From positions 222,524 to 286,523 of the forward strand of contig CAZUKA010000001.1 of NCBI GenBank assembly GCA_964620905.1: DNA of 64,000 nucleotides. Reading direction: 5' to 3'. Made by a program: the position numbers and the translations under genes. The notes under the pieces are model-generated. The model was not told the DNA's origin and did no database searches. It saw nothing but the letters and a program-made list of their open reading frames with translations. Below, piece after piece: positions 23,321 through 55,485 of this stretch (its first letter is position 1; each line of letters opens with the position of its first letter). The stretch comes from an uncultured Gammaproteobacteria bacterium (lineage in GTDB: Bacteria; Patescibacteriota; Patescibacteriia; S139-126).

Positions 23321-24817
23321 TTATTTAATTTCAACAATCACATTTTTCTCCAATGCTTTAAGAGCGAGTTTAATCCGATCCTGACTTTGTGCATAAAAAG
23401 TAAACAATTTATCTTTTACTCTCACTTTATCCTGATAATGAACATGCATATGAATTCCTGCGATTTTATCACTAGGTGCACCTAAATTTACACAAATTTC
23501 ATTGATAGCTTTGTTATTTATAAATACTACCCGACCATTTTTCTTGGCATGAATTTCATAATTCAGTGCCCCCAGTGCCACTTCATCGGAATCAATATCG
23601 GCATTACCTCCTTGAGCAGCAATAATCTTTTTCATTTGCCTATTAGCTTCACCACTAATTAATTGACGTTGAGCAATCTTTTCTCCTTGACCCAACTTAC
23701 AGAATCCAGCTAACTCTAGTAAATAGCCAGATAGCCTAACTGCTTTCTTTTCAAGATCTACTGGTCGTAATTCTTTTTGTTGTAATACTCTTAGTACATC
23801 TCTTGCTTCCAAAGCTGGTCCAATACCTCGACCGACTGGTTCAAATGATGGAGTTCTAACAACTTTCACCTTCATACCAAACTTTTTTGCTAAATACAAA
23901 AACTTTTTTTCAATTTCATCAGCAAATTTATTTTTTGGTATTTTGGTAGTTGGTCCGATTGGTAAATCAAGAACTAAATAATCAACCCCCATAGCCACCT
24001 TTTTGGCCATAATAGAGACTATCATTTTGTCATACGGTTCAATACCCAGTGGTCTAGTTATCCGTACGATTTTATCATCGGCTGGAGCTAAATTTACCCC
24101 ACCCCCCCAAACCATACAAGCATTGACCCGTTTTACAATCTTTTTTATTTCCGTCATAGAAAATGTTACTGGAGCTAAAACTTCCATTGTATCAGCTGTT
24201 CCTGATGGAGAAGTAATCGCCCGGCTGGAAGTTTTGGGAATGTACAATCCAAGCGATGAAACAATTGGTACCACGACCATTGTAGTTCGGTTCCCTGGCA
24301 GCCCTCCAACTGAATGTTTATCAACTGCTGGTACGTTCAAATTTAGCATTTCACCTGTTTCGGCAACTGCTTTTGAAGTATAGTAAAGTTCGTCTAAGGT
24401 ATAATCACGTAAATAACTGGAAGCTACATAATAAGTTGTCTCTATTTCTGAAAATCTATCATCAACAATATCTTTAATTATTGAATAGATTTCGTCGTAA
24501 TTTAATTTTTTACCAAAAATTTTTTTTCTAATTGCCTGAATGGATGGTGGCCGCGAAACAATCTCCACTTCGACTATTTCACTATCCAGAGAAGATTTTT
24601 TATTCCATAACTCTTTAAATAAACCAACTTCACCTGGTTTTACTTTGCTGGTAGTAGTTCTAATTTCAGCAATTCTTTTTAAACGATTATTCCAGGTTAA
24701 CTGAATTCTATCACCAGCCATTACTCCATAATACTCTGCTTCCTCCTCATTTATCACTACTACTGGTTCGTTGCCAGTAGAAAAATCCAATTTTTTTGAT
24801 TTTAAGAAAAAGGACAT
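23321..24817 (-). CDS. deoA: AMP phosphorylase (archaeal-type thymidine-phosphorylase family, DeoA-like)
   Basis: About 500 aa with an N-terminal extension preceding the glycosyl-transferase family-3 fold (HSVGGLPGNRTTMVVVPIV ... GIEPYDKMI). Immediately downstream of RuBisCO in the same operon. Confidence 0.7.
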   Translation of the reverse strand: MSFFLKSKKLDFSTGNEPVVVINEEEAEYYGVMAGDRIQLTWNNRLKRIAEIRTTTSKVKPGEVGLFKELWNKKSSLDSEIVEVEIVSRPPSIQAIRKKIFGKKLNYDEIYSIIKDIVDDRFSEIETTYYVASSYLRDYTLDELYYTSKAVAETGEMLNLNVPAVDKHSVGGLPGNRTTMVVVPIVSSLGLYIPKTSSRAITSPSGTADTMEVLAPVTFSMTEIKKIVKRVNACMVWGGGVNLAPADDKIVRITRPLGIEPYDKMIVSIMAKKVAMGVDYLVLDLPIGPTTKIPKNKFADEIEKKFLYLAKKFGMKVKVVRTPSFEPVGRGIGPALEARDVLRVLQQKELRPVDLEKKAVRLSGYLLELAGFCKLGQGEKIAQRQLISGEANRQMKKIIAAQGGNADIDSDEVALGALNYEIHAKKNGRVVFINNKAINEICVNLGAPSDKIAGIHMHVHYQDKVRVKDKLFTFYAQSQDRIKLALKALEKNVIVEIK

Positions 24818-24866
24818 GTCTACAAATTATAAATTATAAATTTTAAATTATTAATAAAATAATTTA

Positions 24867-26159
24867 TTAATTTTTCACATTTTGCCAATATTCAAGAGCA
24901 GTTTTGAGTTCTGGTCTGTTTTTGGCATAAGAATGTAAGTTTGCTCCCAAAGAAGCTGCTTCAACTGCATCTCTGGCAGCTACTGCCCCTGCAAAAGAAC
25001 CATCCGGATGACCATGAATACCACCGCCAAAATTGATAATTAAATTACGGCCTAAAATTTTAATAAGTTCTGATGCTAATCCAGGATGCAAACCCCCAGA
25101 AGCGATTGGCATCACCGGTTTTATTTTTGACCAATTTTCTCGCAAGTAATCTATCTCGCCGGCATCTTCTCTTAAAAAATCATTTAGGGTATCTACTTCA
25201 TGTGCGGTTCCTTCCATTTTACCCACCACCGTTCCTGTATGTAATTGATCAATACCAGCCAATCTTGATAATTTTGCTAAAACCAACATGCTCATTCCCT
25301 GGGTTGGATCTTTGGTAAACATACTATGACCCGCTCGGTGTCCATGTAAAATCAAACCTAAATTTTGTTTTCTTATTGATTGAATAGCTGACCATCCCAT
25401 TGCCACAATATCAACCATCACTACCCGTCCGCTTCTTTTTTTAACATATTTTGCTCTTTGTAAAGCAATGTCATAAGGACCAGTGATATTGAAAACAAAA
25501 ACTTTTCTTTCACCTGTCTCTTTTTCTACTTTTTTTCTGACCGCAATCAATTTATCAACTCTTTCATAAAAATTGTTAAACGTCAGCGAAGTAAGATTTT
25601 CATCATCTTTTATTATATCCACGCCCCCCCGCCAAGTTTCATAAGCTACCGCAGCAGTTTCTGCAACATCCAAACCAACTTTTGGTTTTATAATACTTCC
25701 TACTAATGCACGATTATAAACTTTCATAATTTTTCTTATCCCCCCAATCCCATGAAATGGACCTAAACAAAAGTTAATATATTTTTTTGGAAAAGCTATA
25801 TCTTCCAGCCGCAAACGTTCCACAATTTTCATACTAAATATATTGCCACCCAAAAAAGACAATAATTGTGGTAAATTACCAATTTCCGACAGCGCCAAAG
25901 GATATGCAACTTTTATAAAACCACGCCGCTTATCGACTTCATAAACATGAGGAGTCAATTTTATTTTAGTAGCTTCAGACAATGTTTCTAAGTGCGTCCA
26001 GGTACCAATCGATGATTCTCCCGCAATCGCTTCTGCTACTGTAGTAAAGGTCTGCCCTTTAGCGGGTAAAATATGATAAGTAACTAAAAACTCCTTGTCT
26101 AAATTTGGTTTATAATGTTGATCAATAAATCCTTGGTAAGAAGTGGTAAATTTTTTCAT
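24867..26159 (-). CDS. rbcL: Ribulose-1,5-bisphosphate carboxylase large subunit, form II/III-like
   Basis: Active-site motifs: KPKVGL (carbamylated Lys), GGVDIIKDDE, HGHRAGH, GGGIHGHPDG. About 430 aa, as for form III and II/III enzymes. Confidence 0.85.
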   Translation of the reverse strand: MKKFTTSYQGFIDQHYKPNLDKEFLVTYHILPAKGQTFTTVAEAIAGESSIGTWTHLETLSEATKIKLTPHVYEVDKRRGFIKVAYPLALSEIGNLPQLLSFLGGNIFSMKIVERLRLEDIAFPKKYINFCLGPFHGIGGIRKIMKVYNRALVGSIIKPKVGLDVAETAAVAYETWRGGVDIIKDDENLTSLTFNNFYERVDKLIAVRKKVEKETGERKVFVFNITGPYDIALQRAKYVKKRSGRVVMVDIVAMGWSAIQSIRKQNLGLILHGHRAGHSMFTKDPTQGMSMLVLAKLSRLAGIDQLHTGTVVGKMEGTAHEVDTLNDFLREDAGEIDYLRENWSKIKPVMPIASGGLHPGLASELIKILGRNLIINFGGGIHGHPDGSFAGAVAARDAVEAASLGANLHSYAKNRPELKTALEYWQNVKN

Positions 26160-26767
26160 AATTTATCAATTAATTGTTTTAAATTGCTTATAACCAAATC
26201 TGCTGATATTGGTTTAATATTTGTATTATCTCGATTATACCAACAGGTTTTAAAATTTATTTTCTTGGCGGCTCTGATATTTTCTATTTTATCATCAATA
26301 AACAAAGTTCGGGAGGGATTTAGTTTATATTTTTTTATCAGTTCCCGATAAATTTTTAGATCTGGTTTTTTGACATAATATTGCCAAGAATAAACTTTGC
26401 CTAAAAAATATTTTTGGAATTTAAATCTTTTTTCTAGATACTTTGACCATTCGCGAGGAATATTTGACAAAATAAAAAGGTTTTTATTTTGTTTACGAAA
26501 TAATCTTACTACTCTATGAAAATCTTTATCTAAATAATGTCTTAGATAAAATTTTTTCTCCAAAACAGTAAATTTTTTACCAACCCCCATCAACTTCCAA
26601 AATTTTTTTTGATTAATTTTACTAAGTGCATAATCATGATAAATTTTTCGGCAATATGAATGCTGCTTGTGTTGCGGTAAAATGGGGAAAAGTATATTTC
26701 TAATATTTTGTCCTTCGGAAATAATTACTCCATAAATATCAAACACAATATTTTCTATTTCAACCAT
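26156..26767 (-). CDS. HAD-superfamily hydrolase-like protein (haloacid-dehalogenase-type DxYG motif I)
   Basis: Motif I IVFDIYGVI (Asp nucleophile, D+2 replaced by Tyr as in L-2-haloacid dehalogenase-type members), motif II FILSN, motif III K in VKKPD, motif IV LFIDDKIEN. Overlaps rbcL by 4 bp and e2b2 by 13 bp. Confidence 0.45.
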   Translation of the reverse strand: MVEIENIVFDIYGVIISEGQNIRNILFPILPQHKQHSYCRKIYHDYALSKINQKKFWKLMGVGKKFTVLEKKFYLRHYLDKDFHRVVRLFRKQNKNLFILSNIPREWSKYLEKRFKFQKYFLGKVYSWQYYVKKPDLKIYRELIKKYKLNPSRTLFIDDKIENIRAAKKINFKTCWYNRDNTNIKPISADLVISNLKQLIDKL

Positions 26768-27681
26768 AAATATCTTTTTACAATGCTGGCTACTTGTTTT
26801 GGTTTTATCACGCCAAACTCTGTAATTAGACCACTGATCAACTTTGCTGGTACCCGATCAAAAGCGTAGTTCAATATTCGCACTTGCGCAGGTTTATTTG
26901 GCCAAATTTCTTTGTCTGATCTCATTTCAATTTTTACATTATTATGGTAGTCAAACTTCAATAAGCTGGTGGCAACAAAAAACGGTATTTTATTTAGATA
27001 AGCACTGGCCGCAATATCATAAGTTCCAATTTTATTGATAATACTACCATCTTTTTTTATAGCATCCGCTCCCACCACTATAGCTTGTATCATTAAATCT
27101 TTTCCAGAATATGGTGAGATTAAAAAACCACTCGCGCTATCTGCAAGCTGAGTAACAGGTATGTTTAAACGAATTAGATCTTTAGCAGTCAGTCGACCTT
27201 GGTATAAAGGTCTAGTTTCATCAGCAAAGACATGTAACTTAGGGTTTTTTTTATGTAAACTGGCAAATATTTTAACAACTATTGATGAATGACAATGGGT
27301 CAAAATATTATTGTATTTTTTCAAAGCCAAAACACCAAACTGGATTATGGAATTTTCGTTTTTTTTGATTAAGAGTTCATATTCCCCTAACCATTTTTTC
27401 AACAAAAATTTTAATTTTTTTAAATCAGTATTAGTTGGGATAGTAGAGATTTTTTGATGAAGAAATAGATATAAACTCTGGGCATACAATCCAGTCGGTC
27501 GAGCATAAGCTAAATTTTTAGTTGCTATTAAAAAATCGATTTTGAATGATTTAAAATTTTTATCAGTAGTAGTGTTGAGCAAAGACAATAATGTCTTGAT
27601 GGTTTCTTTAGCAATATTAGTTGCACCCTGAATTTCCAAATTTTTAATTTTTTTGACAACTTTGTTTATATTGATTGACAT
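26755..27681 (-). CDS. e2b2: Ribose-1,5-bisphosphate isomerase (eIF-2B alpha/beta/delta family)
   Basis: eIF2B-like fold (ADETRPLYQGRLTAKDLIRLNIPVTQLADSA ... AIVVGADAIKKDGSIINKIGT). Operon partner of RuBisCO and AMP phosphorylase. Confidence 0.7.
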   Translation of the reverse strand: MSININKVVKKIKNLEIQGATNIAKETIKTLLSLLNTTTDKNFKSFKIDFLIATKNLAYARPTGLYAQSLYLFLHQKISTIPTNTDLKKLKFLLKKWLGEYELLIKKNENSIIQFGVLALKKYNNILTHCHSSIVVKIFASLHKKNPKLHVFADETRPLYQGRLTAKDLIRLNIPVTQLADSASGFLISPYSGKDLMIQAIVVGADAIKKDGSIINKIGTYDIAASAYLNKIPFFVATSLLKFDYHNNVKIEMRSDKEIWPNKPAQVRILNYAFDRVPAKLISGLITEFGVIKPKQVASIVKRYLWLK

Positions 27682-27690
27682 GTTAATAAA

Positions 27691-29478
27691 CTAAAATTTA
27701 ATCTTATCACCGGGTTTTATTTTTTTGTCCAGTTCGGTGGTGGAAACAGGAAGAGTCTTTTTTTCTTTTGCCTTGATTTGCTCTGGTTGATTTTTAACTA
27801 AAATTTCCAATCTTCCCAACGCTTCACTAAGTGAAATTTCGGCTGGAGTTTCTTTGACCACATCTTCTACTAAAATTTTTTGACGTGACGGCTGACTAGA
27901 TTTGATCGGATGGAATGATTTTTTATTTTCTATTTTTGGCCAAGTTATCAATTTTTGCTTATATAACTTTAAGCAATCTGGACAAAATACTGGTCTGATA
28001 CCATCGGGTTGAAATTTAATCTTAACTTCCTTTTGACAATTCGAGCATTGGGCTGTATAAAAATTTTCGTTTGTATTATTTTTAGTTGTTATTATTTTCT
28101 TGGTTTGCAACTTACTGTCATCAGAAAAATTTATTTGCTTATTTTTTGTTTTTACCAACTCTGAACTTTGACTAAGTTCCTCGTTATTAAAACCAGCCCA
28201 TCGCGCAATTTTGTCTTCAATAACCTCTCTTTTGGTGGCATACCTTTCTCTGGTAACTTTGATAATTTTTTCTTCGTTCAGTTGATCTTTTGGTAGTGGA
28301 GGCAAAGTTGTTGCTGAAAAAGGCGTGGAAGCAAGACCATCAATCATTAATTTCAAATAAATATCATATTTCGCCAAATTTACTAAATCTGTCTCATCAA
28401 ACGTAGGGGTAAATTCTTTTGCTAAAAATTCAGCATCATCTGCACCTACTCGAAAAGTTACTAAAGTGCCAACATTACCAAAAACCGCGTCCCGCACGCG
28501 AGTTGAATCAGTGGTTACCAATTGGGCGATATATTGATGGGCAATAATCAAATTCAGACGGTACTTTCTGGCCTCCGACAAAATATCAGCGAAAGAATTG
28601 GTTACAAAATTTTGAAATTCATCAACATACAGATAAAAGTCCTCTCGTTTATTTTCTGGTATATCTACTCTACCCATTGCTGCCATTTGGATCTTAGTTA
28701 TCATCATGGCTCCCAGTAAAGCCGAAGCGTCTTCGCCAATTCTACCCTTTGAAAGATTGAGTAATAATATTTTCTTATTGTCCATAATTTCTCGTAAATC
28801 TATGGTCGATTTAACCTGACCAACAATATTGCGAATTAACGACAAAGATAGAAACTGACCAACTTTATTTTGAATTGGTGAAATAGCTTCCACCTGAAAC
28901 TGTTGGTTATATTTGGGATATTCTTGAGTCCAAAAACTCTTTACCACCGGATCGTTTATTTTATCAACGACTTTTTTTCGATACTCTTTATCAACTAATA
29001 TTCTAGTAACACCCAATAAAGTAGCCCCGGGGTAATCAAGTAATGCCAAGATGGCATTGCGTAATAAATATTCCAGACGCGGCCCCCAGGAGTCAGCCCA
29101 TAATTTTTTAAAAATGCCAATCAATCCAGACGCTACCAGATTTTTTTGATGTGGTTCGTCGACAGATTCTAAAATATTGAAAGCTAATGGATAATCAACG
29201 TCAGATGGATTAAAATAAACTACATCATTTATTCGCTGGGCTGGTATCGCATTTAATAAATCTTCAACCAATTCCCCATGCGGATCCACCACAGCTAAAC
29301 CATTTCCATTGTAAATATCTTGAATGGCCATATTCTTCAATACTTCTGATTTACCCGAGCCAGTTTTACCAATGACATACATATGACGACGACGGTCGTC
29401 TTTTTTTATACCAAATTCGCGCGTTTGATTACGAAAATTTGTTTTAGCAAAATAAGTTATTTCTGGATGGAAATTCAT
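27691..29478 (-). CDS. TraG/VirD4/HerA-superfamily P-loop ATPase with C-terminal zinc ribbon
   Basis: Walker A HMYVIGKTGSGKSEVL, Walker B LYVDEFQNF, C-terminal CSNCQ-x17-CPDC ribbon and Lys-rich tail. No N-terminal TM segments. Confidence 0.55.
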   Translation of the reverse strand: MNFHPEITYFAKTNFRNQTREFGIKKDDRRRHMYVIGKTGSGKSEVLKNMAIQDIYNGNGLAVVDPHGELVEDLLNAIPAQRINDVVYFNPSDVDYPLAFNILESVDEPHQKNLVASGLIGIFKKLWADSWGPRLEYLLRNAILALLDYPGATLLGVTRILVDKEYRKKVVDKINDPVVKSFWTQEYPKYNQQFQVEAISPIQNKVGQFLSLSLIRNIVGQVKSTIDLREIMDNKKILLLNLSKGRIGEDASALLGAMMITKIQMAAMGRVDIPENKREDFYLYVDEFQNFVTNSFADILSEARKYRLNLIIAHQYIAQLVTTDSTRVRDAVFGNVGTLVTFRVGADDAEFLAKEFTPTFDETDLVNLAKYDIYLKLMIDGLASTPFSATTLPPLPKDQLNEEKIIKVTRERYATKREVIEDKIARWAGFNNEELSQSSELVKTKNKQINFSDDSKLQTKKIITTKNNTNENFYTAQCSNCQKEVKIKFQPDGIRPVFCPDCLKLYKQKLITWPKIENKKSFHPIKSSQPSRQKILVEDVVKETPAEISLSEALGRLEILVKNQPEQIKAKEKKTLPVSTTELDKKIKPGDKIKF

Positions 29479-29481
29479 AAT

Positions 29482-31014
29482 TTAAAAAGGTAAATTTTCC
29501 GGCGCTTGTCCGGGAGATGTTGTTTGATCTGCAGATAAGTTTTCTGTTTTCTGTTTTTTATTTCCGTCATACTCAAACTGATTTTTTTCTGTTGGTAAAA
29601 CCACTTCAAAATCAGTTTGATCAGAAGATGAAATCCCATTAAAAATAGGTTTCGATTTAATTTCATTTTTAACCTCGCCAGGGATATTTACTGTTATGGG
29701 CTCTCCACCACGTTTCTGATCTACCGGTAACTGGGCAGGTGGCTCTGATCGTTTGCTTTCAACTTTTTTAACCAAAGGTGCTTTCACGGTTAAAGCAGGA
29801 AAATGATAAATAGTTGCTAACTCTTCAATATTTAAGATAAATGGTTTATTGCCAAAACGTAAATCGCCAATTCTTTTCTTAAAAGCTTTCATGATCTTGG
29901 TTTGCTTTTTAGCTAAACGTTTTTCCACCCGCCAATAATCAGCAGAGGTAGTTGTAGTTTTTACCTTAGCGAAATAGTTCATGTTTAATGTATTAAATTG
30001 GTTTAAACCTCCCATGATCGGAGCTACTCCCCGATTCTTATCAAAAATTTCACGTCGGGCTAAATAAATAAATCTACCTTTGACAAAAAAACCAATTTTC
30101 GACATTTTTTCTTCAATCGCTTGTAAAACATCTTTTTGACCACTAGTTAAATATAACATTTTATTTGGTTCATCACCTTTGCTTTTTTCATCAGCTGTAC
30201 CTTCAGCTTTAACAACAAAAGTATCTCCCAAAAATTTCATAAAAGACAAAAAAGGAATGGTTAAATAATAACCTAAATCTTTCTGCTGAGTTTGCTTTTC
30301 ACCAATAATTTTTTTTACTTCCTTTTCGCACTCTTTTTTCCAACTATCTCCCGTGGGTGTAATTATCCATTGCAAACAAGCAAATTCGCCTCCTTTTAAA
30401 TGTGACATCACCTCCAATAAAGATGAGATTGGATCTTTTATTTCTTGTGATAAAGTATGTTCAAAACGCGGATAGGTTCTAATAGGATAAGGGTTCTTAT
30501 TCCCCAATTTTATATCAGTGCCCCAAAGCTCATAGGTATCATTAGGAAATTCATCGGGAAAATTTTGGGCATAATCACTAAATGGCATAATTTCAGCGTC
30601 CGGATACTGGGCAAAAAAAGCCGCTTCTACCACGTCTTTATATTTTTCTGGAAAATGAACTAAATATTGGATATAACCTTCCAGACTGACCAATTCTAAA
30701 CTAAAAGGTAACTGATGCTGACCCAACCAATATTTTTCATATAAATTAGGTCCACTAAGAGTCCCGGCTAAAGTTGCGAAAACTTGTTCTACTGCTTTTG
30801 GTGATTGCTCGTTGTTTTTGGGAATATCAACCGCCAACAACATAAATTTGGTCGCACGTAAAAATTTTTCCCGACGCGCTGGTAACCAGAACCATTTAAT
30901 AAAAAAACTTAAAATAAAAAAAAGAAAAAATATTGAAAAAATTCCCAATAAAATTGGTCCGGCAACTGAGATAATTTTAGGATCTACATTTAGTGGTGAC
31001 AAATCGATGGTCAT
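29482..31014 (-). CDS. Hypothetical single-pass membrane protein (operon partner of the ATPase)
   Basis: 510 aa. One N-terminal TM (ISVAGPILLGIFSIFFLFFILSFFIKWFWL), then a large domain with no recognisable motif. 4-bp gaps to both neighbours. Confidence 0.4.
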   Translation of the reverse strand: MTIDLSPLNVDPKIISVAGPILLGIFSIFFLFFILSFFIKWFWLPARREKFLRATKFMLLAVDIPKNNEQSPKAVEQVFATLAGTLSGPNLYEKYWLGQHQLPFSLELVSLEGYIQYLVHFPEKYKDVVEAAFFAQYPDAEIMPFSDYAQNFPDEFPNDTYELWGTDIKLGNKNPYPIRTYPRFEHTLSQEIKDPISSLLEVMSHLKGGEFACLQWIITPTGDSWKKECEKEVKKIIGEKQTQQKDLGYYLTIPFLSFMKFLGDTFVVKAEGTADEKSKGDEPNKMLYLTSGQKDVLQAIEEKMSKIGFFVKGRFIYLARREIFDKNRGVAPIMGGLNQFNTLNMNYFAKVKTTTTSADYWRVEKRLAKKQTKIMKAFKKRIGDLRFGNKPFILNIEELATIYHFPALTVKAPLVKKVESKRSEPPAQLPVDQKRGGEPITVNIPGEVKNEIKSKPIFNGISSSDQTDFEVVLPTEKNQFEYDGNKKQKTENLSADQTTSPGQAPENLPF

Positions 31015-31018
31015 GGTT

Positions 31019-32137
31019 TTAAGAGGCAGCTAATTTATATGTGCCATCGGCGTTTTTAGTAAATCTTTTTTTATTCATTAGAGCCAAGGCAATAGTACTT
31101 TCCTTAACCAAGCGCTTCTGTAAAACTTCTTTTATTATTTCCTGCTTAGTCAATGGTTCAATGGAATTCTGAATAATTTCTTTTATCACCTCGGCTACAA
31201 CTCCTGGTTTATAACCCCATTCTTTCAAAGCATAAATTCCGCGACCAATCAACACATATCTACTATTATCTAAAATTAGTTCATTGTGGATAGTGGCCGC
31301 ATGCGCTTTCTTGCCGTCAAAATTTGCTTCGTTTATTTTTGTTGCTATTTCACGAAAATGCATTGGTTGACCGCCATGTTTGAGGACTAAATAAATTTTA
31401 TCATTCATCCGACGCGGTGAAATTAAAGGCCAATTATAAAAACCCCAATCGCCAAATGGATTGACTTTCAATTTTTTAGATAATTTGATGTAAGACAAAA
31501 AAATATCAAGATTTATTTTTTCTTGCCATTTCATACCAATCTCATCTTTTTTAAATTGTTGCCACAATTCTTCTGTAGTAAATAAACGATTGGCTCGTTT
31601 TATCATTTCTTCGGTTGCCAATATTACTTCGGATAAAATTTGCGAATTAAAATCCGGCAGTTGCCAACCAGCTTTGAAATTTTTATTTTCTCTTATAGGT
31701 AAAAACTGATCTTTGGCCAGTTCTAAAAAGAAAACAACAAAATTATCGTCTATTTTTTCATTAACCAATTCCTTTACTTTTCTAATTAATTCATTAGCTT
31801 CAATTACTCCACCTAAATCACGAATTATCTGTTCAACCACAATCAATGAATGGTTTAATTCTGTATTATCACGCAAAAATTTTTTTAGTTGTTTAATGCT
31901 TACTACTTCAATCTGTCGCACCCTCTCTCTAGTGATATTATAAACCTTGCCAATATCCTCCAAAGTATAACGTTTAGCTTCAATATTTAATCCATGACGT
32001 AAAGCAATCACATCTTTTTCCCTTGTTGGTAGTAGAGACAAGATTTCGTTGATAATAATTTTCGGATTAAATAAAGCTGCTTCTTCTTTAATTTGAGTAG
32101 CAATTACTTTTTCTAAAATTGAATCATTATTTGTCAT
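31019..32137 (-). CDS. Sigma-70 region-4 domain protein with C-terminal HARE-HTH-like domain
   Basis: N-terminus TREKDVIALRHGLNIEAKRYTLEDIGKVYNITRERVRQIEVVSIKQLKKF is a region 4.2 HTH. C-terminus PMHFREIATKINE ... YVLIGRGIYALKEWGY resembles the HARE-HTH of the RNAP delta subunit. Confidence 0.55.
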   Translation of the reverse strand: MTNNDSILEKVIATQIKEEAALFNPKIIINEILSLLPTREKDVIALRHGLNIEAKRYTLEDIGKVYNITRERVRQIEVVSIKQLKKFLRDNTELNHSLIVVEQIIRDLGGVIEANELIRKVKELVNEKIDDNFVVFFLELAKDQFLPIRENKNFKAGWQLPDFNSQILSEVILATEEMIKRANRLFTTEELWQQFKKDEIGMKWQEKINLDIFLSYIKLSKKLKVNPFGDWGFYNWPLISPRRMNDKIYLVLKHGGQPMHFREIATKINEANFDGKKAHAATIHNELILDNSRYVLIGRGIYALKEWGYKPGVVAEVIKEIIQNSIEPLTKQEIIKEVLQKRLVKESTIALALMNKKRFTKNADGTYKLAAS

Positions 32138-32771: not shown

Positions 32772-33749
32772 TTAATTTGTTATTCTTTTTTTAAATTCCT
32801 CCACCATTGGCACTTGTTCTTCCTCGTGACCATAGTATCTGGCAATAGAAACAGCTGTCCAATCAGCCAACAGTAAAGAATTAAAATATTTTAACCATTT
32901 TGTTTCACCCTCTAAATATATATTTCTAACTGGTAAACGTCTCTCATGATAAAGTTGAAATAAAACCTCTAGCCTTTTTTTATTTCGCGGATTATCTGTA
33001 GAATCAAGTAAAAATAAGATATAAAAACGATCAGTCAAATATTTACTTTTGTCGTTTAAATCAAAACCAGTCATCTCGTTGTGGTTGAGTTCTGGGACTA
33101 CATTATAAAAAGCCGGGATTTTACCTGTTTCATTTAATTTAATTTTCCAATTATATCCCAAACTTTTATTTTTTTGACTAGTATAAATCAGAGGAACAAA
33201 ACCCGATATTTCAGAGGCTATTTCTTGACCTTGGCTTTTCATTTTTTCAACTTCTAGTTCGGTAGTTAATTTTTTTAAAGTCAACAAAATATCCTTTTTG
33301 GCAAGTAAGGTAGCAAGAGCTATCAAGCTAAATCCCAAAGCACTGCGTGGTTGAATACCGGTTTGAGGAAGTTTTATATATGGCACGCCATCTTTTTGAG
33401 CCAAAGCTAACAATTGCCCACCTACCGCAATCACGGCTGATGATAATTTTTTAGACCGGGCCTGCAGATAACCATCAATAGTTTCTTCGGTATTACCAGA
33501 GTAAGAACTAAAAATAAATAAAGTGTTTTTTGACCTCTCAGTAGTCAGTGCAACTTCAGGTAAACCATAATCTGAATGAATTTGTAAATCAATTTCTGGT
33601 TCTAAATTTTGCAATATATCAGCCGATAAGTGCGATCCTCCCATACCACAAACCACAAAACTTTTATAGGTAGTGAGCTGGGAAGCAAATTCAACTTTAG
33701 GTGAAAATTCAAACTGCTTAGGGAAATTCAAAATAGCCTCGGTCATCAT
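32772..33749 (-). CDS. Bifunctional phosphoglucose/phosphomannose isomerase (archaeal-type SIS-domain PGI/PMI)
   Basis: FVVCGMGGSHLSADIL SIS motif. About 325 aa, as for the PGI/PMI family and unlike the 450-550 aa canonical PGI. Confidence 0.65.
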   Translation of the reverse strand: MMTEAILNFPKQFEFSPKVEFASQLTTYKSFVVCGMGGSHLSADILQNLEPEIDLQIHSDYGLPEVALTTERSKNTLFIFSSYSGNTEETIDGYLQARSKKLSSAVIAVGGQLLALAQKDGVPYIKLPQTGIQPRSALGFSLIALATLLAKKDILLTLKKLTTELEVEKMKSQGQEIASEISGFVPLIYTSQKNKSLGYNWKIKLNETGKIPAFYNVVPELNHNEMTGFDLNDKSKYLTDRFYILFLLDSTDNPRNKKRLEVLFQLYHERRLPVRNIYLEGETKWLKYFNSLLLADWTAVSIARYYGHEEEQVPMVEEFKKRITN

Positions 33750-44422: not shown

Positions 44423-46558
44423 ATGAGTCTGCTGAGTCAAAATATATTTCTTCCCGCTGATAAACCGATCAATAACGCAACTTTCTTTTATACTCATTTA
44501 CCTGAAATTAATGAGTTGGGTTATTTAATCTTTGGAGTTGATACCTATCTTCCACTTTCTCAACACCATACTATTATAAACCTACTAAACTCATTGAGTG
44601 ACAACTATTTTTTACGACAAGATATCGCTGATCCACTGGGTTGCTTGGAAAAAGTCATCAATCAATTTAATTTGGAATTCTTACAAAATTTTTTAGAACA
44701 AATTAGTTGGTCAAGAAAAATAAATATCACATTAGCTTTATTAGTTGATCAAAAACTCCACTTTGCCAATTATGGTAATAATCACCTACTGCTGCTAAAA
44801 CAAAAAAATTATATTGATATTATTAGACAGGTATCAGCCAACCTTCACTTATCTTCTAAAAAAATATTTGACCAAATTTATTCAGGTGATATAAATCAAT
44901 TCAATCGTTTAGCTCTATGCAACCAAGCGGTTTTAGATTATATTTCATCTGAAAAAATTAAAAATATTTTCAATATTTTACCTATACAAAATATTCCCGA
45001 ACAATTAATACAACTTACCAAACAAACTTTTCGTAATCAAAATATGTCGGGTATTATTATCTTGAATCCCGAATTTAAAACAATCAACAATGATTTGGGC
45101 GAAAAAAAGGTTTTTTTAACTGATGACACAATAAAAAATTTACAAATCAAAACTGCTGAAACGCAAAAATATCTTCACCCCAAATACCTGCCCGATATAG
45201 AACAAATCAAACAAAAATTTTTAAAATTATTACCTAAAACAAAAAATCAACTTGTCTATCAAAAAGAGAATAAAAATATATCGGGCTTTAAAAACTATTT
45301 AAATAAGTTTAGAGGGTTGCCTGCTAATGTTTCTTTTTTAAATCGTAAATATAAACACCAAATTTTAGATTTAGGTCAATTTTTAAAAAATGTGCCGGTT
45401 GATTTATTATTTTCTTTAAAACAGTTACATCTAAAAATAAAATCTTTGTCAAAGTTAAGCAAATTTTTATTAGCGGCATCGTTAATATTGATATTTTCCT
45501 TATTATTTAATCTGTCAGTACTGGGTATTAAAAAAAATACCAATATTAGTACCGAATATTTCAACCAAACTGTAAATCAAATTCAAGCCTTACAAAGCGA
45601 AGCTCAAGCGGCTATTATCTATGGTGACAATCAAAAAGCCAAACAAGTGTTAAACCAAGCACTAAACTTGACCTTCAACTTACCAAAAAACAATAGTGAA
45701 AGAGAAAAAATAAATTTTGATTTATTACAAAAAAATGAGCAATTATTAAATGAGGCTAACCGATTAATTGTTCTTTCTTCACTTTCACCTTTGATTAGTA
45801 TTGATAGTATCACCAACGAAAATCCAATAAAAAATAGCCTCTATATCAATGGAAATAATTTATTTTTTTTAACAAACAATTCATTGTTTAAAATAAATTT
45901 AAATGACCGAGCTATTACCAAATTAGACTTGCCCGACCAAAAACCTGAATTATTGATTACGGAAAAAGAAAATTTGTTTGTCTTTTTTTCTGAAAATAAA
46001 ACTCTCTACCGTTTAGACGTTGATTCCAATGAATGGCAAAACACCCTACTCCCTTGGACAGAAAATAAACCCCCCAGTAGCGGCGGTATTTATAACAATA
46101 ATATTTATTTGAGTACAGCAGATGATAATAAAATATTAAGATACAACAATATCGGCAATAGTTTTACCGGACCACAAATTTGGCTTGGACCAAATAAAAT
46201 AAGCGAGGTTTCCAGTCTAAGCATTGATGGATCAATTTACACATTGCAAACAAATGGTCAAATATACAAATTTACTCGGGGTGAACAACAAATTTTTTCA
46301 GTAGAGCCAATAGAACCAAATATAAAATCCGGAGGTCAAATAATCACCAACAACGATCTTACGGTTATTTATATACTAGATCCGTCCAATAAACGACTAG
46401 TCATTATTAATAAAGAAGGTAAACTTGTTCAACAGTATAAATCTGATGTTTTTAGCAACCTTGAAGCTGTGGCAGTCAGTCAGAAAAAGGAAAACAATAA
46501 ACGAATCATTTATTTGTTCGCTGAAAAAAATATCTATGAATTGTTAGTAGCTGAATAA
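44423..46558 (+). CDS. Large bitopic protein: N-terminal degenerate PP2C-like domain, central TM, C-terminal extracytoplasmic repeat domain
   Basis: ITLALLVDQKLHFANYGNNHLLLL aligns with the PP2C motif around VANVGDSRAVL, with the metal-binding D/S replaced by N/N. Single TM (LAASLILIFSLLFNLSVLGI) at ~aa 350, then ~340 aa of repetitive beta-rich sequence. Confidence 0.45.
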   Translation: MSLLSQNIFLPADKPINNATFFYTHLPEINELGYLIFGVDTYLPLSQHHTIINLLNSLSDNYFLRQDIADPLGCLEKVINQFNLEFLQNFLEQISWSRKINITLALLVDQKLHFANYGNNHLLLLKQKNYIDIIRQVSANLHLSSKKIFDQIYSGDINQFNRLALCNQAVLDYISSEKIKNIFNILPIQNIPEQLIQLTKQTFRNQNMSGIIILNPEFKTINNDLGEKKVFLTDDTIKNLQIKTAETQKYLHPKYLPDIEQIKQKFLKLLPKTKNQLVYQKENKNISGFKNYLNKFRGLPANVSFLNRKYKHQILDLGQFLKNVPVDLLFSLKQLHLKIKSLSKLSKFLLAASLILIFSLLFNLSVLGIKKNTNISTEYFNQTVNQIQALQSEAQAAIIYGDNQKAKQVLNQALNLTFNLPKNNSEREKINFDLLQKNEQLLNEANRLIVLSSLSPLISIDSITNENPIKNSLYINGNNLFFLTNNSLFKINLNDRAITKLDLPDQKPELLITEKENLFVFFSENKTLYRLDVDSNEWQNTLLPWTENKPPSSGGIYNNNIYLSTADDNKILRYNNIGNSFTGPQIWLGPNKISEVSSLSIDGSIYTLQTNGQIYKFTRGEQQIFSVEPIEPNIKSGGQIITNNDLTVIYILDPSNKRLVIINKEGKLVQQYKSDVFSNLEAVAVSQKKENNKRIIYLFAEKNIYELLVAE

Positions 46559-52246: not shown

Positions 52247-53818
52247 TTAAATTAGAGACTTTCCGGTCATGTCCGAAGGTATGGGTAAATTTAATAAAGT
52301 AAGTATAGTTGGCGCGACATCAGCTAGTACTCCTACTGGGGTGCTCAAATGCAATTCATTTTTGTTGTTTAGTCTACCCTGACCTAACCAGGGTTTACCC
52401 AACAAAATAAATGGAACTGGTGAGGAAGAATGTTCTTTATCTATTTCCCCACTCCTTAATTTTATTAACTCCTCAGCATTGCCATGATCAGCAGTTATCA
52501 GAAGTGCTCCCGCACGAGTTAATACCGCTTCAGAAATTTTACCCAGACATTCATCTACTACCTCAATAGCTGTGATAGTGGCTTTTAAATTGCCAGAGTG
52601 AGCTACCATGTCGGGTGGGGCAAAATTTACTAAAATAAACATATAACCACCTTGATTAATGGCCTCAATCACTTTTTTTGTTACTTCATAAGCTGACATC
52701 TCGGGTTTTTTATCATAACTGGAAATTTTTGGCGAAGGAACCATAATATGTTCTTCGCCATCAAAAGGTTTTTCTATACCACCATTAAAAAAAAATGTAA
52801 CATGAGCATATTTTTCTGTTTCAGCAATATGAATTTGTCGACCGCCATTTTCGGAAATAACTTTTGCCAAGGGCATCGAAACTACTTCTGGAGGAAAAGC
52901 AATCGCAACTGGTAAATCTTTTTCATACTCGGTCATAGTAGTAAAAAATATATTTTGACACACTTTAGACCTAGTAAATCCAGTAAAATCAGTTTGGACA
53001 AAAGCTTTGGTCATTTCTCGAGCCCGATCGCTACGAAAATTAAAATAAATTATCGCATCGTTATTAGAAATCAAAACTGGTTGATTTTTTTGATCTAATA
53101 TAACAGTCGGTTCAAATTCTTCATCAAAAACGCCTCGCTGATATGATTCCTCTACTGCCCGTAGCGGATCAGAAGAACTATATTTTGCCTCGCCCAGCAC
53201 CATTGCCCGATAAGTAAGTTCAATCCGCTCCCAACGATTATCGCGATCCATAGCATAAAACCTTCCCGAAATTGTAGCGATTCTGCCTAAATTAATATTT
53301 TGCAATACTTTTTGCAACGCTGAAATATAAGATAAACCACTATTTTTTGCTGTATCTCGACCATCAAGAAAAGCATGTACATAAACCTGTTTGACCTTAT
53401 ATAATTTAGCCGTTTCCAATAAAGCAAATAGATGTTCAATATAACTATGAACTCCGCCATCAGATACTAAGCCCATGATATGCAAATTTGAATCATGCTT
53501 TTTGGTATGGTTAAAAGCATCTAAGAATGCTTGATTTTTTATAAAACTACCATCCGAAATTGATCTGGTGATGCGAGGTAAATTTTGATATAAAATCTTT
53601 CCCGAACCCAATGATAGATGTCCTACTTCCGAGTTACCCATTTCACCCCAAGGTAAACCAACCGATTCGCCTGAAGCTTGTAAATTAAAAGTGGGATAAT
53701 TTACCAAAAAATTATCATAGTTTGGAGTTTTGGCTAGTGAAATAGCATTACCAATTGACGGCGGAGCAACTCCCCAACCATCCAAAACAACTAAAACTAC
53801 GGGACTAATTTTATTCAT
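52247..53818 (-). CDS. gpmI: 2,3-bisphosphoglycerate-independent phosphoglycerate mutase
   Basis: VVLVVLDGWGVAPPS ... catalytic Ser in MGNSEVGHLSLG ... ITADHGNAE. Full-length iPGM. Confidence 0.8.
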   Translation of the reverse strand: MNKISPVVLVVLDGWGVAPPSIGNAISLAKTPNYDNFLVNYPTFNLQASGESVGLPWGEMGNSEVGHLSLGSGKILYQNLPRITRSISDGSFIKNQAFLDAFNHTKKHDSNLHIMGLVSDGGVHSYIEHLFALLETAKLYKVKQVYVHAFLDGRDTAKNSGLSYISALQKVLQNINLGRIATISGRFYAMDRDNRWERIELTYRAMVLGEAKYSSSDPLRAVEESYQRGVFDEEFEPTVILDQKNQPVLISNNDAIIYFNFRSDRAREMTKAFVQTDFTGFTRSKVCQNIFFTTMTEYEKDLPVAIAFPPEVVSMPLAKVISENGGRQIHIAETEKYAHVTFFFNGGIEKPFDGEEHIMVPSPKISSYDKKPEMSAYEVTKKVIEAINQGGYMFILVNFAPPDMVAHSGNLKATITAIEVVDECLGKISEAVLTRAGALLITADHGNAEELIKLRSGEIDKEHSSSPVPFILLGKPWLGQGRLNNKNELHLSTPVGVLADVAPTILTLLNLPIPSDMTGKSLI

Positions 53819-55403: not shown

Positions 55404-55485
55404 AATATTTGAAAAAGGAGCCTAATTTTACTCCTTGGAATTATTAAATATATTTTAACACATTTTAACAGTATGGTAATAAACC

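Follow-up and report, generated by a model that had tools for sequence, protein, structure and literature searches.

A block of four co-directional genes on the minus strand of a 64-kb stretch of DNA (hereafter, the window) very probably encodes a nucleotide-salvage route with CO2 incorporation, the AMP or pentose bisphosphate pathway, in a CPR bacterium. The host belongs to the Minisyncoccota/Paceibacter lineage. The four ORFs that the first-pass annotation had placed between positions 23321 and 27681 are present at exactly these limits and code, in this order, for an e2b2-family isomerase, a HAD-family protein, the RuBisCO large subunit and an AMP phosphorylase (Table 1). Their family matches are all well above chance, with E-values of 3.8e-54 for IF-2B, 2.8e-13 for HAD, 3.1e-85 for RuBisCO_large, 1.3e-35 for RuBisCO_large_N, 6e-152 for TIGR03326 (rubisco_III) and 4e-163 for the archaeal-type phosphorylase. 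DeoA would phosphorolyse AMP, and probably other NMPs, to a free base and ribose-1,5-bisphosphate (R15P), which the e2b2 protein would isomerise to ribulose-1,5-bisphosphate (RuBP). The form III RuBisCO would then add CO2 and water to RuBP, and the two resulting 3-phosphoglycerates (3-PGA) would pass into lower glycolysis via gpmI and eno, 26 kb away. This sequence of steps in CPR bacteria, already proposed in the first pass, is supported by family scores, residue checks and conserved synteny. No assay of any enzyme of this operon or of a form III-c RuBisCO was found in the searchable literature, and we infer the activities and the flux from enzyme identity, residue-level intactness and synteny.

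Table 1. Predicted features of the salvage block, its upstream neighbour and the lower-glycolysis cluster (positions in the window)
Feature	Position	Strand	Remarks
e2b2-family ribose-1,5-bisphosphate isomerase (R15Pi)	26755..27681	-	308 aa; first gene of the block; PF01008
Atypical phosphohydrolase-like protein of the HAD-IA group (type A, with cap)	26156..26767	-	203 aa; PF00702/PF13419, TIGR01509
rbcL, RuBisCO large subunit form III	24867..26159	-	430 aa; TIGR03326
rbcL-deoA spacer, AT-rich, 49 nt	24818..24866	-	contains promoter-like site
deoA/AMPpase, AMP (NMP) phosphorylase	23321..24817	-	498 aa; TIGR02645, archaeal N-terminal domain
VirD4/TraD-like ATPase with C-terminal zinc finger	27691..29478	-	context gene, family match
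pgk	57227..58420	-	Pfam PGK 1e-120
Pilin-like gene	56721..57230	-	between pgk and eno
eno	55486..56724	-	Enolase_C 4.5e-101
gpmI	53811..55403	-	iPGM_N (4e-83 and 1e-58 for the two paralogs)
gpmI, second tandem paralog	52247..53818	-	iPGM_N

The translation of rbcL contains the four motifs by which it had been recognised, KPKVGL, GGVDIIKDDE, HGHRAGH and GGGIHGHPDG. The active-site residues are intact at all 21 positions examined, among them the KPK motif, the carbamylated Lys184 and Asp186/Glu187, so that the catalytic residues are retained, as in the CPR form III-c cluster. A form IV control sequence fails at 9 of the active-site positions, the window protein at none of the 21. Since every position is compatible with carboxylase activity and the form III model TIGR03326 is passed (506.3 bits; cutoff 497.45), a form IV RuBisCO-like protein is ruled out. 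The assignment to form II/III made in the first pass did not hold: the enzyme is form III, its best PDB match being the form III enzyme of P. horikoshii (2cwx) with 399 bits, versus 242 bits over a partial alignment for the M. burtonii enzyme 5mac, which we take as the form II/III representative although the PDB entry itself says type III. The nearest named relatives are called 'RuBisCO long chain, Form III-c', and identity amounts to 56-58% with sequences deposited as form III-c and to about 50% with archaeal form III-b. In a neighbour-joining (NJ) tree, the window protein forms a subclade with those of L013 (Ca. Paceibacter sp.) and L002 (bootstrap 99-100%), nested in an all-CPR clade that holds five sequences named form III-c. 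This subclade is distinct and well supported, and its link to the named III-c sequences has a bootstrap of only 26%. The phylogenetic placement upholds form III, in a group with named form III-c sequences, and not form II/III. These comparisons place the RuBisCO in form III, where the CPR 'form III-c' sequences of Jaffe et al. (2019) are its nearest group.

It is highly improbable that this RuBisCO serves in a CBB-like cycle fed by a phosphoribulokinase (PRK), instead of or besides nucleotide salvage. PRK homologs do accompany form III-c, III-like or II/III RuBisCO in some CPR genomes, but Gottesmanbacteria and Peregrinibacteria are the groups for which they are reported, and this lineage is not among them (PMC6389311). 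Moreover, the genes flanking rbcL are e2b2 and deoA instead of cbb genes, and no PRK was found in the window: the ORFs of at least 200 aa that were screened gave no PF00485 match. The window makes up 64 kb of the genome, whose size is at least 717 kb. The presence of a PRK would not in itself be a clean argument against the salvage reading (cf. Jaffe et al.).

The identification of the e2b2 protein as an R15P isomerase is borne out by structure matches and by catalytic and 5-phosphate ligand residues. Its top matches among solved structures are the characterised R15P isomerases 3a11 of T. kodakarensis (the best, 121 bits) and 5yfj of P. horikoshii, with the MtnA structure 1t9k lower (90 bits). 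The catalytic Cys130 and Asp206, the 5-phosphate ligands Ser132 and Lys242 and the sugar ligands Asn216 and Lys217 are all kept; in genuine MtnA, the two positions where e2b2 has the Ser and Lys that bind the 5-phosphate are occupied by Ala and Thr. Of 38 further RuBisCO-linked e2b2 proteins examined, every one has Ser137 and 37 have Lys240, the exception being L014 with Arg (cf. PMC5789824). Judged by its residues, the protein bears the R15P isomerase ligand signature, not that of MtnA. CPR e2b2 proteins, that of the window included, lack the AMP-activator site that archaeal isomerases such as the T. kodakarensis enzyme possess (R124, R190, K194, D290), and a 7-residue insertion is found instead; regulation would therefore be different. 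In addition, the protein scores below the TIGR00511 R15Pi equivalog cutoff (165 vs 314), and the NCBIfam eIF-2B_rel/MtnA subfamily model is slightly above the R15Pi model (185 vs 165). This last result, a weak match of the HAD protein to enolase-phosphatase (1.9e-5) and the fact that the methionine-salvage route of B. subtilis also uses the e2b2, RuBisCO and HAD superfamilies would fit a methionine-salvage-like module made of an MtnA isomerase, an RLP/MtnW enolase and an MtnX-type HAD phosphatase. The chance of this is negligible: the module is effectively refuted by the e2b2 ligands, by an RbcL that has all carboxylase residues, passes the form III cutoff and scores 164-212 bits with MtnW models whose cutoffs are 409-514, and by a fourth gene coding for an AMP phosphorylase, and the window yielded no MtnK, MtnB or MtnD.

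DeoA reaches 536.6 bits with TIGR02645 (cutoff 434.6) and 529.8 with TIGR03327, AMP_phos (cutoff 535), being 5 bits short of the latter cutoff. It aligns with the T. kodakarensis AMP phosphorylase (Tk-AMPpase, 4ga5) at 360 bits from residue 8 to 487, and at about 120 bits with bacterial pyrimidine nucleoside phosphorylases. The 4ga5 alignment takes in the N-terminal domain, in agreement with the first-pass view of an AMP phosphorylase with the archaeal N-terminal extension. Thus, the block has homologs of the three enzymes of the T. kodakarensis AMP pathway (AMPpase, R15P isomerase and RuBisCO), with conserved catalytic and substrate-binding residues, and its best structure matches are Thermococcus/Pyrococcus enzymes. 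It differs in having a bacterial host, in a RuBisCO affiliated with III-c instead of the form III-b of T. kodakarensis, and in being an operon, whereas the three pathway genes of T. kodakarensis are presumably not clustered.

The block, described in the first pass as co-directional and overlapping, is indeed co-directional, but it overlaps at two junctions only, by 13 nt between e2b2 and the HAD gene and by 4 nt (ATGA) between the latter and rbcL; a spacer separates rbcL from deoA. Within this spacer, the promoter-like site TTAATA-17-TATAAT (24854..24826) is a consensus match only, and the region as a whole shows no excess of promoter-like sites over shuffled sequence. The upstream edge of the block is not clean, since the VirD4-like gene ends 9 nt before the start codon of e2b2, with which it is possibly co-transcribed. 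e2b2 is directly preceded by this gene also in L002, L004, L008, L011, L012, L013, L091 and L093. Of 20 CPR-type loci taken from species-representative genomes, 15 have the order e2b2-rbcL-deoA, and this synteny has been published for form III-c (PMC6389311); the core finding is therefore known biology. The window resembles the described form III-c clusters in gene order, tight packing and a genome of Parcubacteria type (PMC6389311, PMC5113843), and differs by the extra HAD gene that its lineage has between e2b2 and rbcL.

Regarding the outlet, the 3-PGA had been proposed to feed a pgk-eno-gpmI operon at 52-58 kb. Entry through gpmI and eno stands, but not through pgk, which acts upstream of 3-PGA. 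The named genes are there, and the cluster also contains a pilin-like gene and a second gpmI, the two tandem iPGM paralogs being 45.9% identical.

The HAD gene, small, unusual and lineage-specific, is the only part of the block not already described. The first-pass annotation had correctly listed a HAD-like gene but passed over it, though it is the sole non-standard component. The word 'hydrolase' is absent from PMC6389311 and PMC5113843, and 'had' in Jaffe et al. is apparently the ordinary verb. Motif I of the protein reads FDIYGV, with a Tyr where the Asp+2 general acid is expected. The phosphatase core (nucleophile Asp10, Ser101, Lys134, Asp158-Asp159) is kept in all orthologs, which are 51-62% identical, conserve motifs I to IV and share 67 invariant alignment columns. 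The cap has an invariant basic and aromatic cluster of its own (H33, K34, H36, Y38, R40), and the AF2 model has a mean pLDDT of 90.9. The fold search does not discriminate among HAD-IA enzymes. No equivalog cutoff is passed (37 bits vs 295 for YihX; 29 vs 225 for phosphoglycolate phosphatase), and NCBIfam gives, besides enolase-phosphatase, a weak match to phosphoglycolate phosphatase (5e-7). The top Foldseek matches are L-2-haloacid dehalogenases (L-DEX YL), which share the D-x-Y-G start of motif I; a dehalogenase was rejected, five of the nine essential residues being replaced (T14V, R41L, S175D, N177K, D180N), and motif IV is here an acidic DD pair, as in Mg2+-dependent phosphohydrolases. 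Among free-standing proteins, the closest sequence relatives are of the D-x-G type. With E. coli YihX (HAD4) and D-x-G HAD-IA proteins such as 4jb3, the window protein has in common the C1-capped fold, the DD motif IV and the lack of Asp at D+2. The D-x-G state is seen directly in 4jb3 and P0135-P0142, and YihX presumably also has Gly at D+2, unlike the window protein and its operon-embedded orthologs with their Tyr.

All copies of the Tyr variant that were found are embedded in a RuBisCO operon, whereas none of 61 free-standing Gly-variant relatives adjoins a RuBisCO gene. The slot between e2b2 and rbcL is repeated together with the overlaps in L091 and L093, and alone in L013 and L098. In other lineages (L006, L095, L097), the same slot is occupied by a HAD that lacks the cap and has Tyr or Phe at D+2, and in two DPANN archaea (L061, L056) a HAD with the canonical DxD immediately precedes rbcL. 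Because it overlaps both e2b2 and rbcL, the HAD gene is probably translationally coupled. It is not essential to the pathway, since it is absent from the next-closest operon, L002, and one metagenomic copy has an in-frame stop at Trp128.

Our tentative guess is that the HAD protein would be a Mg2+-dependent phosphohydrolase whose substrate is an intermediate of the pathway that has a good leaving group. Its most likely target would be the anomeric 1-phosphate of R15P or ribose-1-phosphate, and ribose-5-phosphate would be freed, as a branch or relief valve of the pathway. This substrate is suggested by kinship to YihX-type sugar-1-phosphatases, likewise devoid of Asp+2; YihX, which is among the solved-structure matches, is a relatively specific alpha-glucose-1-phosphate phosphatase (PMC4251788). 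Against the guess, destroying the pathway's own intermediate has no obvious advantage.

Less probably, the protein would limit RuBisCO damage by clearing 2-phosphoglycolate, formed in the oxygenase side reaction, or else xylulose-1,5-bisphosphate or another misfire inhibitor. Parallels would be TK1734 of T. kodakarensis and CbbZ and CbbY, whose genes are located in cbb operons. To our knowledge, the damage-control HADs for these two compounds have a canonical DxD motif I, unlike the window protein. HAD phosphatases for such compounds are tied genetically or functionally to RuBisCO elsewhere (PMC11032457, PMC10212915), and the suggestion of translational coupling in the HAD/rbcL overlap, the DxD HAD upstream of rbcL in DPANN archaea and the weak phosphoglycolate phosphatase match point the same way; the score far below the phosphoglycolate phosphatase cutoff and nearest relatives that are YihX-like, not Gph- or CbbY-like, argue against it. 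We rate as low the idea of an unrelated or decaying passenger, inserted by chance in one lineage, maybe catalytically impaired and with no role in the pathway. The gene is confined to the immediate clade of the window, its GC content is 25.5% against 31-37% in its neighbours, the general acid is lost, one copy carries the stop, and plainly unrelated insertions (a DNA methylase, membrane proteins) occur in other operons. A passenger is nevertheless hard to reconcile with a catalytic core and invariant columns kept down to 51% identity, with the overlaps maintained in two other loci, with the cap-less HAD bearing the same aromatic substitution in the same slot elsewhere, or with a Tyr variant never seen outside the operon.

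More doubtful still is a RuBP phosphatase like that of the haloarchaeal non-carboxylating pentose bisphosphate pathway, composed of R1P kinase, R15P isomerase, HAD RuBP phosphatase and Ru1P aldolase (PMC9700705), which would open a RuBisCO-independent exit from RuBP through ribulose-1-phosphate to DHAP and glycolaldehyde. There, the HAD and the R15P isomerase are encoded in one operon, and in the window their genes overlap; the haloarchaeal HAD acts on a pentose bisphosphate as a strictly RuBP-specific 5-phosphatase (PMC9700705); TK2301, a broad-specificity phosphatase of T. kodakarensis, also prefers RuBP (PMC11032457). However, the haloarchaeal route replaces RuBisCO in species devoid of it and needs a FucA-type aldolase, whereas here rbcL comes next and the screened ORFs of the window include no such aldolase. 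In addition, RuBP carries its phosphates as ordinary alkyl esters, a type of substrate with which losing the Asp+2 general acid, as the window HAD has, should be costly.

The nucleotide-salvage reading of the block as a whole corresponds to a pathway already described, by which CPR bacteria would use an archaeal-type RuBisCO to convert the ribose of scavenged nucleotides, together with CO2, into a glycolytic intermediate.

The four minus-strand ORFs that the first-pass annotation had placed at 23321..27681 were recovered with exactly these limits (see the table), and the four RuBisCO motifs quoted there are all found in the rbcL translation. The Pfam and NCBIfam E-values across the four proteins range from 1e-13 to 1e-163. 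The e2b2 and HAD genes overlap by 13 nt and the HAD gene and rbcL by 4 nt (ATGA), while a 49-nt AT-rich spacer lies between rbcL and deoA. A promoter-like TTAATA-17-TATAAT lies inside this spacer and is among the two top-scoring matches of the scanned region; the density of promoter- and terminator-like sites across the operon region does not exceed that of shuffled sequence, and an Rfam search found no regulatory RNA near the operon. Since the stop codon of a VirD4-like gene lies 9 nt upstream of the e2b2 start codon, the transcription unit may exceed 23321..27681.

Genes of the RuBisCO operon, in order of transcription
Gene product	Length (aa)	Coordinates	Strand	Transcription order
e2b2-family protein	308	26755..27681	-	first
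HAD-family protein	203	26156..26767	-	second
RuBisCO large subunit (rbcL)	430	24867..26159	-	third
archaeal-type nucleotide phosphorylase (deoA)	498	23321..24817	-	fourth

The window has a G+C content of about 33%, with nearly all genes on one strand. Among the homologous loci from other genomes and metagenomes with which it was compared (L001 to L102), the closest named relative by RbcL is that of 'Candidatus Paceibacter sp.' (L013; 88% identity), in which the gene order is the same; Candidatus Paceibacter is a genus of the Minisyncoccota (the former Parcubacteria) in the CPR. The order e2b2-rbcL-deoA on a single strand is found in 15 of 20 CPR-type loci from species-representative genomes. 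The idea of an AMP pathway in CPR was set out by Wrighton et al. 2016 (PMC5113843), who demonstrated activity for a form II/III enzyme, and Jaffe et al. 2019 (PMC6389311) described form III-c genes as tightly clustered, with rbcL sometimes fused to the isomerase gene, an arrangement read as the AMP pathway. The title 'uncultured Gammaproteobacteria bacterium' is carried by the third-party MAG records of L006, L007, L012 and L021, whose rbcL operons are clearly of the CPR type, and these labels look wrong. Plainly unrelated insertions occur in other CPR operons (L003 8315-8983, L005 1457-1885, L012 5518-6078 and 7377-8651); they comprise an N6/N4 DNA methylase in the rbcL-deoA gap, a 23S rRNA intervening-sequence protein downstream of rbcL, and apparent membrane proteins (hydrophobic, no Pfam match) around rbcL.

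Directly upstream of e2b2, in the region 27691..32137, lies the gene for a VirD4/TraD-like coupling ATPase, whose C-terminus holds a CxxC-x17-CxxC zinc finger. A VirD4-like gene stands directly 5' of e2b2 in eight other loci as well (L002, L004, L008, L011, L012, L013, L091, L093), at RbcL identities of only 55-88%. Two further genes, one for a protein of ~500 aa without a Pfam match and one for a Sigma70_r4/HARE-HTH protein, come before it in the window, L091 and L093. A bifunctional-type phosphoglucose/phosphomannose isomerase (bact-PGI_C) is encoded at 32772..33749, 5 kb upstream of the operon, and is syntenic in L093. Elsewhere in the window, two large ORFs have no Pfam match, one of 510 aa (29482..31014, minus strand) and one of 711 aa (44423..46558), the latter being one of the few plus-strand genes; at 61342..63508, overlapping ThiF-family and partial nitroreductase-like genes adjoin a histidine kinase.

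The RuBisCO of this operon had been taken for a form II/III enzyme, a claim that does not stand. The protein has the expected N-terminal and catalytic domains (PF02788, 1.3e-35; PF00016, 3.1e-85) and passes the form III equivalog TIGR03326 (506.3 bits, cutoff 497.45), while it fails the form II equivalog NF010002 (265, cutoff 489). Its best solved structures are the form III enzymes of P. horikoshii (2cwx, 399 bits) and T. kodakarensis (334 bits); the M. burtonii enzyme 5mac, which we take as the form II/III reference and whose PDB entry is labelled type III, reaches only 242 bits over residues 3-346. A form IV, RuBisCO-like protein is equally at odds with the data, the scores against the MtnW (164-212 bits) and OiaX (201 bits) models being far under the cutoffs and the catalytic residues unsubstituted. 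All 21 active-site and RuBP-binding positions checked (spinach numbering) are intact: E60, T65, W66, N123, K175, K177, K201, D203, E204, H294, R295, H298, H327, K334, S379, G380, G381, G403 and G404 are retained, and the two changes, T173 to I and L335 to M, are also present in form II and form III references. A check of the spinach reference placed all 21 numbered residues at their canonical positions. A form IV control (OiaX) differs at 9 of the checked positions, which shows that the residue test discriminates.

Phylogenetic placement pointed to the same form. The alignment (n=127) comprised the window RbcL, those of 80 related loci, database matches, plasmid-borne enzymes (annotated form I, form IV, and one of Cereibacter sphaeroides annotated only as ribulose-bisphosphate carboxylase and presumably form II CbbM), P. 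horikoshii, and spinach for the numbering; the neighbour-joining tree (419 columns, 200 bootstraps) was built without labelled III-a, III-like or II/III references. The window RbcL, L013 and L002 form a subclade with 99-100% bootstrap support, inside an exclusively CPR clade of 55 sequences that includes all five entries named 'RuBisCO long chain, Form III-c'. The node linking this subclade to the named III-c entries has 26% bootstrap support; low support was likewise reported for the branches dividing III-c from III-b (Jaffe et al., PMC6389311). By reference form, identity falls from 56-58% (named III-c sequences) through 49.5% (form III-b), 35-38% (form I) and 33% (the Cereibacter enzyme) to 30% (form IV). 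The window RbcL is thus predicted to be a genuine RuBisCO of form III, with an affiliation to III-c, a form without biochemical characterisation according to Jaffe et al. (PMC6389311).

The identity of the e2b2 product is less directly read from family models. It scores 165 bits against the equivalog for ribose-1,5-bisphosphate isomerase (R15Pi; TIGR00511), below the cutoff of 314, and 185.1 against the eIF-2B-related/MtnA subfamily TIGR00524 (cutoff 185.85); NCBIfam scores alone leave the assignment ambiguous, and the protein appears as a divergent member. Its best solved structures are the two characterised R15P isomerases (3a11, 121 bits; 5yfj, 119 bits), which match it better than the MTR-1-P isomerase MtnA (1t9k, 90 bits). 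The catalytic pair is present as Cys130 and Asp206 (C133/D202 in T. kodakarensis, C135/D204 in P. horikoshii), but both residues also occur in MtnA and by themselves do not discriminate. Contacts to the ligand described for P. horikoshii R15Pi (PMC5789824) were mapped by script and compared with those of a genuine MtnA, encoded in an mtnK-mtnA operon, and of 38 further RuBisCO-linked e2b2 proteins. The side chains that hold the 5-phosphate (S137 and K240 in P. horikoshii) are Ser132 and Lys242 in the window protein and Ala and Thr in B. thuringiensis MtnA, and the catalytic Cys is followed by H-S, as in R15Pi, rather than by the N-A of MtnA. Among the 38 RuBisCO-linked proteins, Ser137 is found in all and Lys240 in 37, L014 having Arg. 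Three of the four 1-phosphate ligands (R22, R65, Q166, K215) are identical in the window protein; the exception is R22, replaced by Q18, and Gln is the majority state at this position in the RuBisCO-linked e2b2 proteins of CPR and archaea alike.

The site for the activator AMP is another matter. The residues that form it in P. horikoshii (R124, R190, K194, N209, R229, W231, D290) are not conserved in the window, where they read A119, G185, L196, D211, K231, P233 and S283; the family alignment puts a Ser at position 194, where the other alignment has L196. In the CPR e2b2 proteins, among those compared from the window and L002-L048, a 7-residue insertion, SPYSGKD in the window, occurs at the activator site, and R124, R190, K194 and D290 are absent across the CPR proteins and kept in many Asgard and other archaeal copies. 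By its ligand residues, the window e2b2 protein is a predicted R15P isomerase, and one that probably works without AMP activation.

DeoA gives 360 bits with the T. kodakarensis AMP phosphorylase 4ga5 (query residues 8-487, chain residues 6-482). Since this alignment begins at residue 8, the archaeal N-terminal domain is included; the alignment with the delta-N construct 4ga4 begins only at residue 90. Structures of bacterial pyrimidine nucleoside phosphorylases reach about 120 bits, and bacterial TP and PyNP models at most 212 bits. The protein falls 5 bits short of the AMP_phos equivalog TIGR03327 (529.8, cutoff 535) and passes TIGR02645 (536.6 vs 434.6) and NF003338 (543.4 vs 434).

In substance, then, the route from AMP through R15P and RuBP to 3-PGA proposed in the first-pass annotation was borne out, with a different form of RuBisCO. 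The alternative that the genes serve methionine salvage (MtnA, MtnW, MtnX) is rejected on the family scores, the RuBisCO active-site residues and the e2b2 5-phosphate ligands. The annotation had also proposed that a phosphoribulokinase (PRK) would speak against the pathway. No PRK (PF00485) was found among the screened window ORFs of at least 200 aa, three genes being covered through the identical L001 copy, yet the argument itself is a poor one, since Jaffe et al. (PMC6389311) found PRK in a number of CPR genomes that have these forms of RuBisCO, where in their view it may simply add RuBP. The lower glycolytic genes of the window are pgk, eno and two gpmI paralogs, and of the earlier suggestion that 3-PGA feeds this group, entry would be at gpmI and eno, while pgk acts upstream of 3-PGA. 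The two iPGM (gpmI) paralogs, tandem and overlapping within 52247..58420, share 45.9% identity, and a type-IV-pilin-like gene (56721..57230) separates pgk from eno. The three-gene e2b2-rbcL-deoA pathway is already established for CPR and DPANN; its occurrence here adds only one more lineage, and confirms that this small genome can convert scavenged nucleotides to glycolytic carbon.

The only non-standard part of the operon is the HAD gene. No mention of an operon HAD was found in Jaffe 2019 (PMC6389311) or Wrighton 2016 (PMC5113843) and, as far as our literature search reached, this operon-embedded atypical HAD is undescribed; it constitutes a testable lead. The protein is assigned by Pfam and NCBIfam to HAD-IA variant 3. 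Its motif I, FDIYGV, contains the nucleophile Asp10, with Tyr12 at Asp+2, two residues further on, where the usual general acid/base stands; Ser101 (motif II), Lys134 (motif III) and the Asp158-Asp159 pair (motif IV) are all intact. At the Asp+2 position, Tyr12 is found in 6 of 6 orthologs of the capped form of ~203 aa present in the window (type A), Tyr or Phe in a cap-less form from other CPR lineages (type B), and Gly in free-standing relatives. None of the NCBIfam equivalog cutoffs is reached (YihX, 37 vs 295; phosphoglycolate phosphatase, 29 vs 225; pyrimidine 5'-nucleotidase, 36 vs 143). The HAD gene has a GC content of 25.5% and a GC3 of 0.19, compared with 31-37% and ~0.25 for its neighbours, and the coding-strand GC skew of the e2b2/HAD stretch is weaker than that of rbcL, deoA, alaS and mnmA. 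The protein diverges at a rate like that of e2b2 (identity to L013 is 62%, while RbcL and DeoA stand at 88-89%).

An AlphaFold model built from 14 sequences (mean pLDDT 90.9) gave L-2-haloacid dehalogenases as top Foldseek matches, followed by drimenol-synthase HAD domains, BT-2542, HDHD4, sEH-N and YihX, all within E-values of 1e-12 to 1e-9, a narrow range; these matches are uninformative on the substrate. To our knowledge, the L-2-haloacid dehalogenases are the only HAD class to have a D-x-Y motif. This motif and the top fold matches prompted a dehalogenase reading, which we reject: of the nine residues essential in L-DEX YL (D10, T14, R41, S118, K151, Y157, S175, N177, D180; PMC4899344), five are replaced (T14V, R41L, S175D, N177K, D180N), and three of the four retained (D10, S118, K151) belong to the universal HAD core. 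The L-DEX sequence used passed a check of the nine-residue numbering. Motif IV of the window protein is the acidic pair typical of Mg2+-dependent phosphohydrolases.

Five further database clusters of type A, 51-98% identical, all have FDIYGV, and every close relative with a readable context is located in the e2b2-rbcL interval; overlaps of 13 nt and 4 nt recur in L091 and L093, and L013 has the gene in the same slot. With type A as the query, a metagenome scan yielded 80 HAD relatives. The closest four (L098, L099, L100, L102) have e2b2 and/or rbcL as neighbours, three of them with FDIYGV and the fourth cut at the N-terminus, and among the relatives with Gly at Asp+2 none of 61 lies next to a RuBisCO gene; the free-standing Gly-type relatives whose contexts were read directly are also unlinked to RuBisCO. 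The next-closest operon, L002 (RbcL 78% identity), is without the HAD gene, which indicates that its insertion is lineage-specific. In the type-A gene of L099 (4501-5100), an in-frame stop replaces the invariant Trp128 (YSWQ to YS*Q), reflecting either a sequencing error or a gene dispensable in some populations.

Type B proteins have 136-141 aa and a motif I that reads FDFYNV or FDFFNV. They occupy the e2b2-rbcL slot in L006 and L095 and occur also in L097, a short contig on which the flanking e2b2 and rbcL are unconfirmed; the gene overlaps its upstream neighbour by 4 nt in L095 and L097. Pairwise scores do not separate a single recruitment followed by cap loss from two recruitments of types A and B. 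A YfiH/LACC1-family (PF02578) gene lies between e2b2 and the type B gene in L006 (5397-6245) and just upstream of the HAD gene in L097 (769-1629). Purine-nucleoside-metabolising activities have been reported for this family, and its presence is a hint that the pathway may have a wider input side. At two DPANN archaeal loci (Pacearchaeota, Nanoarchaeia; L061 6264-6986 and L056 5743-6453), a different HAD of ~237 aa, TIGR02253-like and with the canonical DxD, is encoded directly upstream of rbcL, with no e2b2 or deoA nearby.

We tentatively propose that CPR salvage operons with a form III RuBisCO recurrently include, as a fourth component, an atypical HAD with Tyr or Phe for Asp+2, which would act on a pentose bisphosphate, either at the anomeric phosphate of R15P or on RuBP; we hold this possible at somewhat short of an even chance. 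As to the reaction, we lean, with no greater confidence, towards an R15P/R1P 1-phosphatase yielding R5P. YihX of E. coli is a relatively specific alpha-glucose-1-phosphate phosphatase (PMC4251788); it is among the structure matches of the window protein, and its D-x-G relatives are the nearest free-standing homologs. An anomeric 1-phosphate is favoured as the target because loss of the general acid should be most tolerable with a good leaving group, and the 1-phosphate of R15P resembles that of glucose-1-phosphate.

A role in damage control is unlikely, if not without precedent: CbbY removes xylulose-1,5-bisphosphate (PMC10212915), and T. kodakarensis has a 2-phosphoglycolate phosphatase, TK1734, along with the RuBP-preferring TK2301 (PMC11032457). 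The case of TK1734 indicates that even anaerobes with form III RuBisCO need clean-up phosphatases; the score of the window protein against phosphoglycolate phosphatase is far from the cutoff. We consider it just as improbable that the HAD is a passenger or an impaired gene. CPR rbcL operons do tolerate insertions, and the general-acid position is lost; D10, K134 and D158-D159 never vary among the operon orthologs and distant relatives, and S101 hardly does.

For an RuBP phosphatase the model would be haloarchaea, where a HAD enzyme with this activity is encoded together with R15P isomerase and opens a RuBisCO-free route via ribulose-1-phosphate (PMC9700705); the window HAD is likewise in an operon with an R15Pi gene, which it overlaps, and the precedent shows that a HAD beside R15P isomerase can redirect a whole pathway. 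No FucA-type aldolase (aldolase_II) matched among the screened ORFs of the 64-kb window, and a search of a plasmid collection for an R15Pi-HAD-FucA cluster, with the window e2b2 and then the T. kodakarensis R15Pi as queries, gave bacterial MtnA proteins and no haloarchaeal cluster among the matches listed. We regard this activity as the most doubtful of those considered.

If the proposal of a pentose-bisphosphate phosphatase is true, the HAD would provide a branch point between CO2-dependent salvage (to 3-PGA) and pentose-phosphate salvage (to R5P/PRPP), or a RuBisCO proofreading step. Should types A and B stem from separate recruitments, this unusual change in the active site would have two origins in one genomic slot. 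Such a HAD, crippled at the general-acid position, probably coupled in translation and encountered nowhere but within RuBisCO operons, makes a candidate for a control or bypass step new to the metabolism of pentose bisphosphates. Two further features, the absence of the AMP-activator site from CPR isomerases and the conservation of a VirD4-like ATPase directly upstream, suggest that the CPR pathway is regulated and connected differently from the archaeal one.
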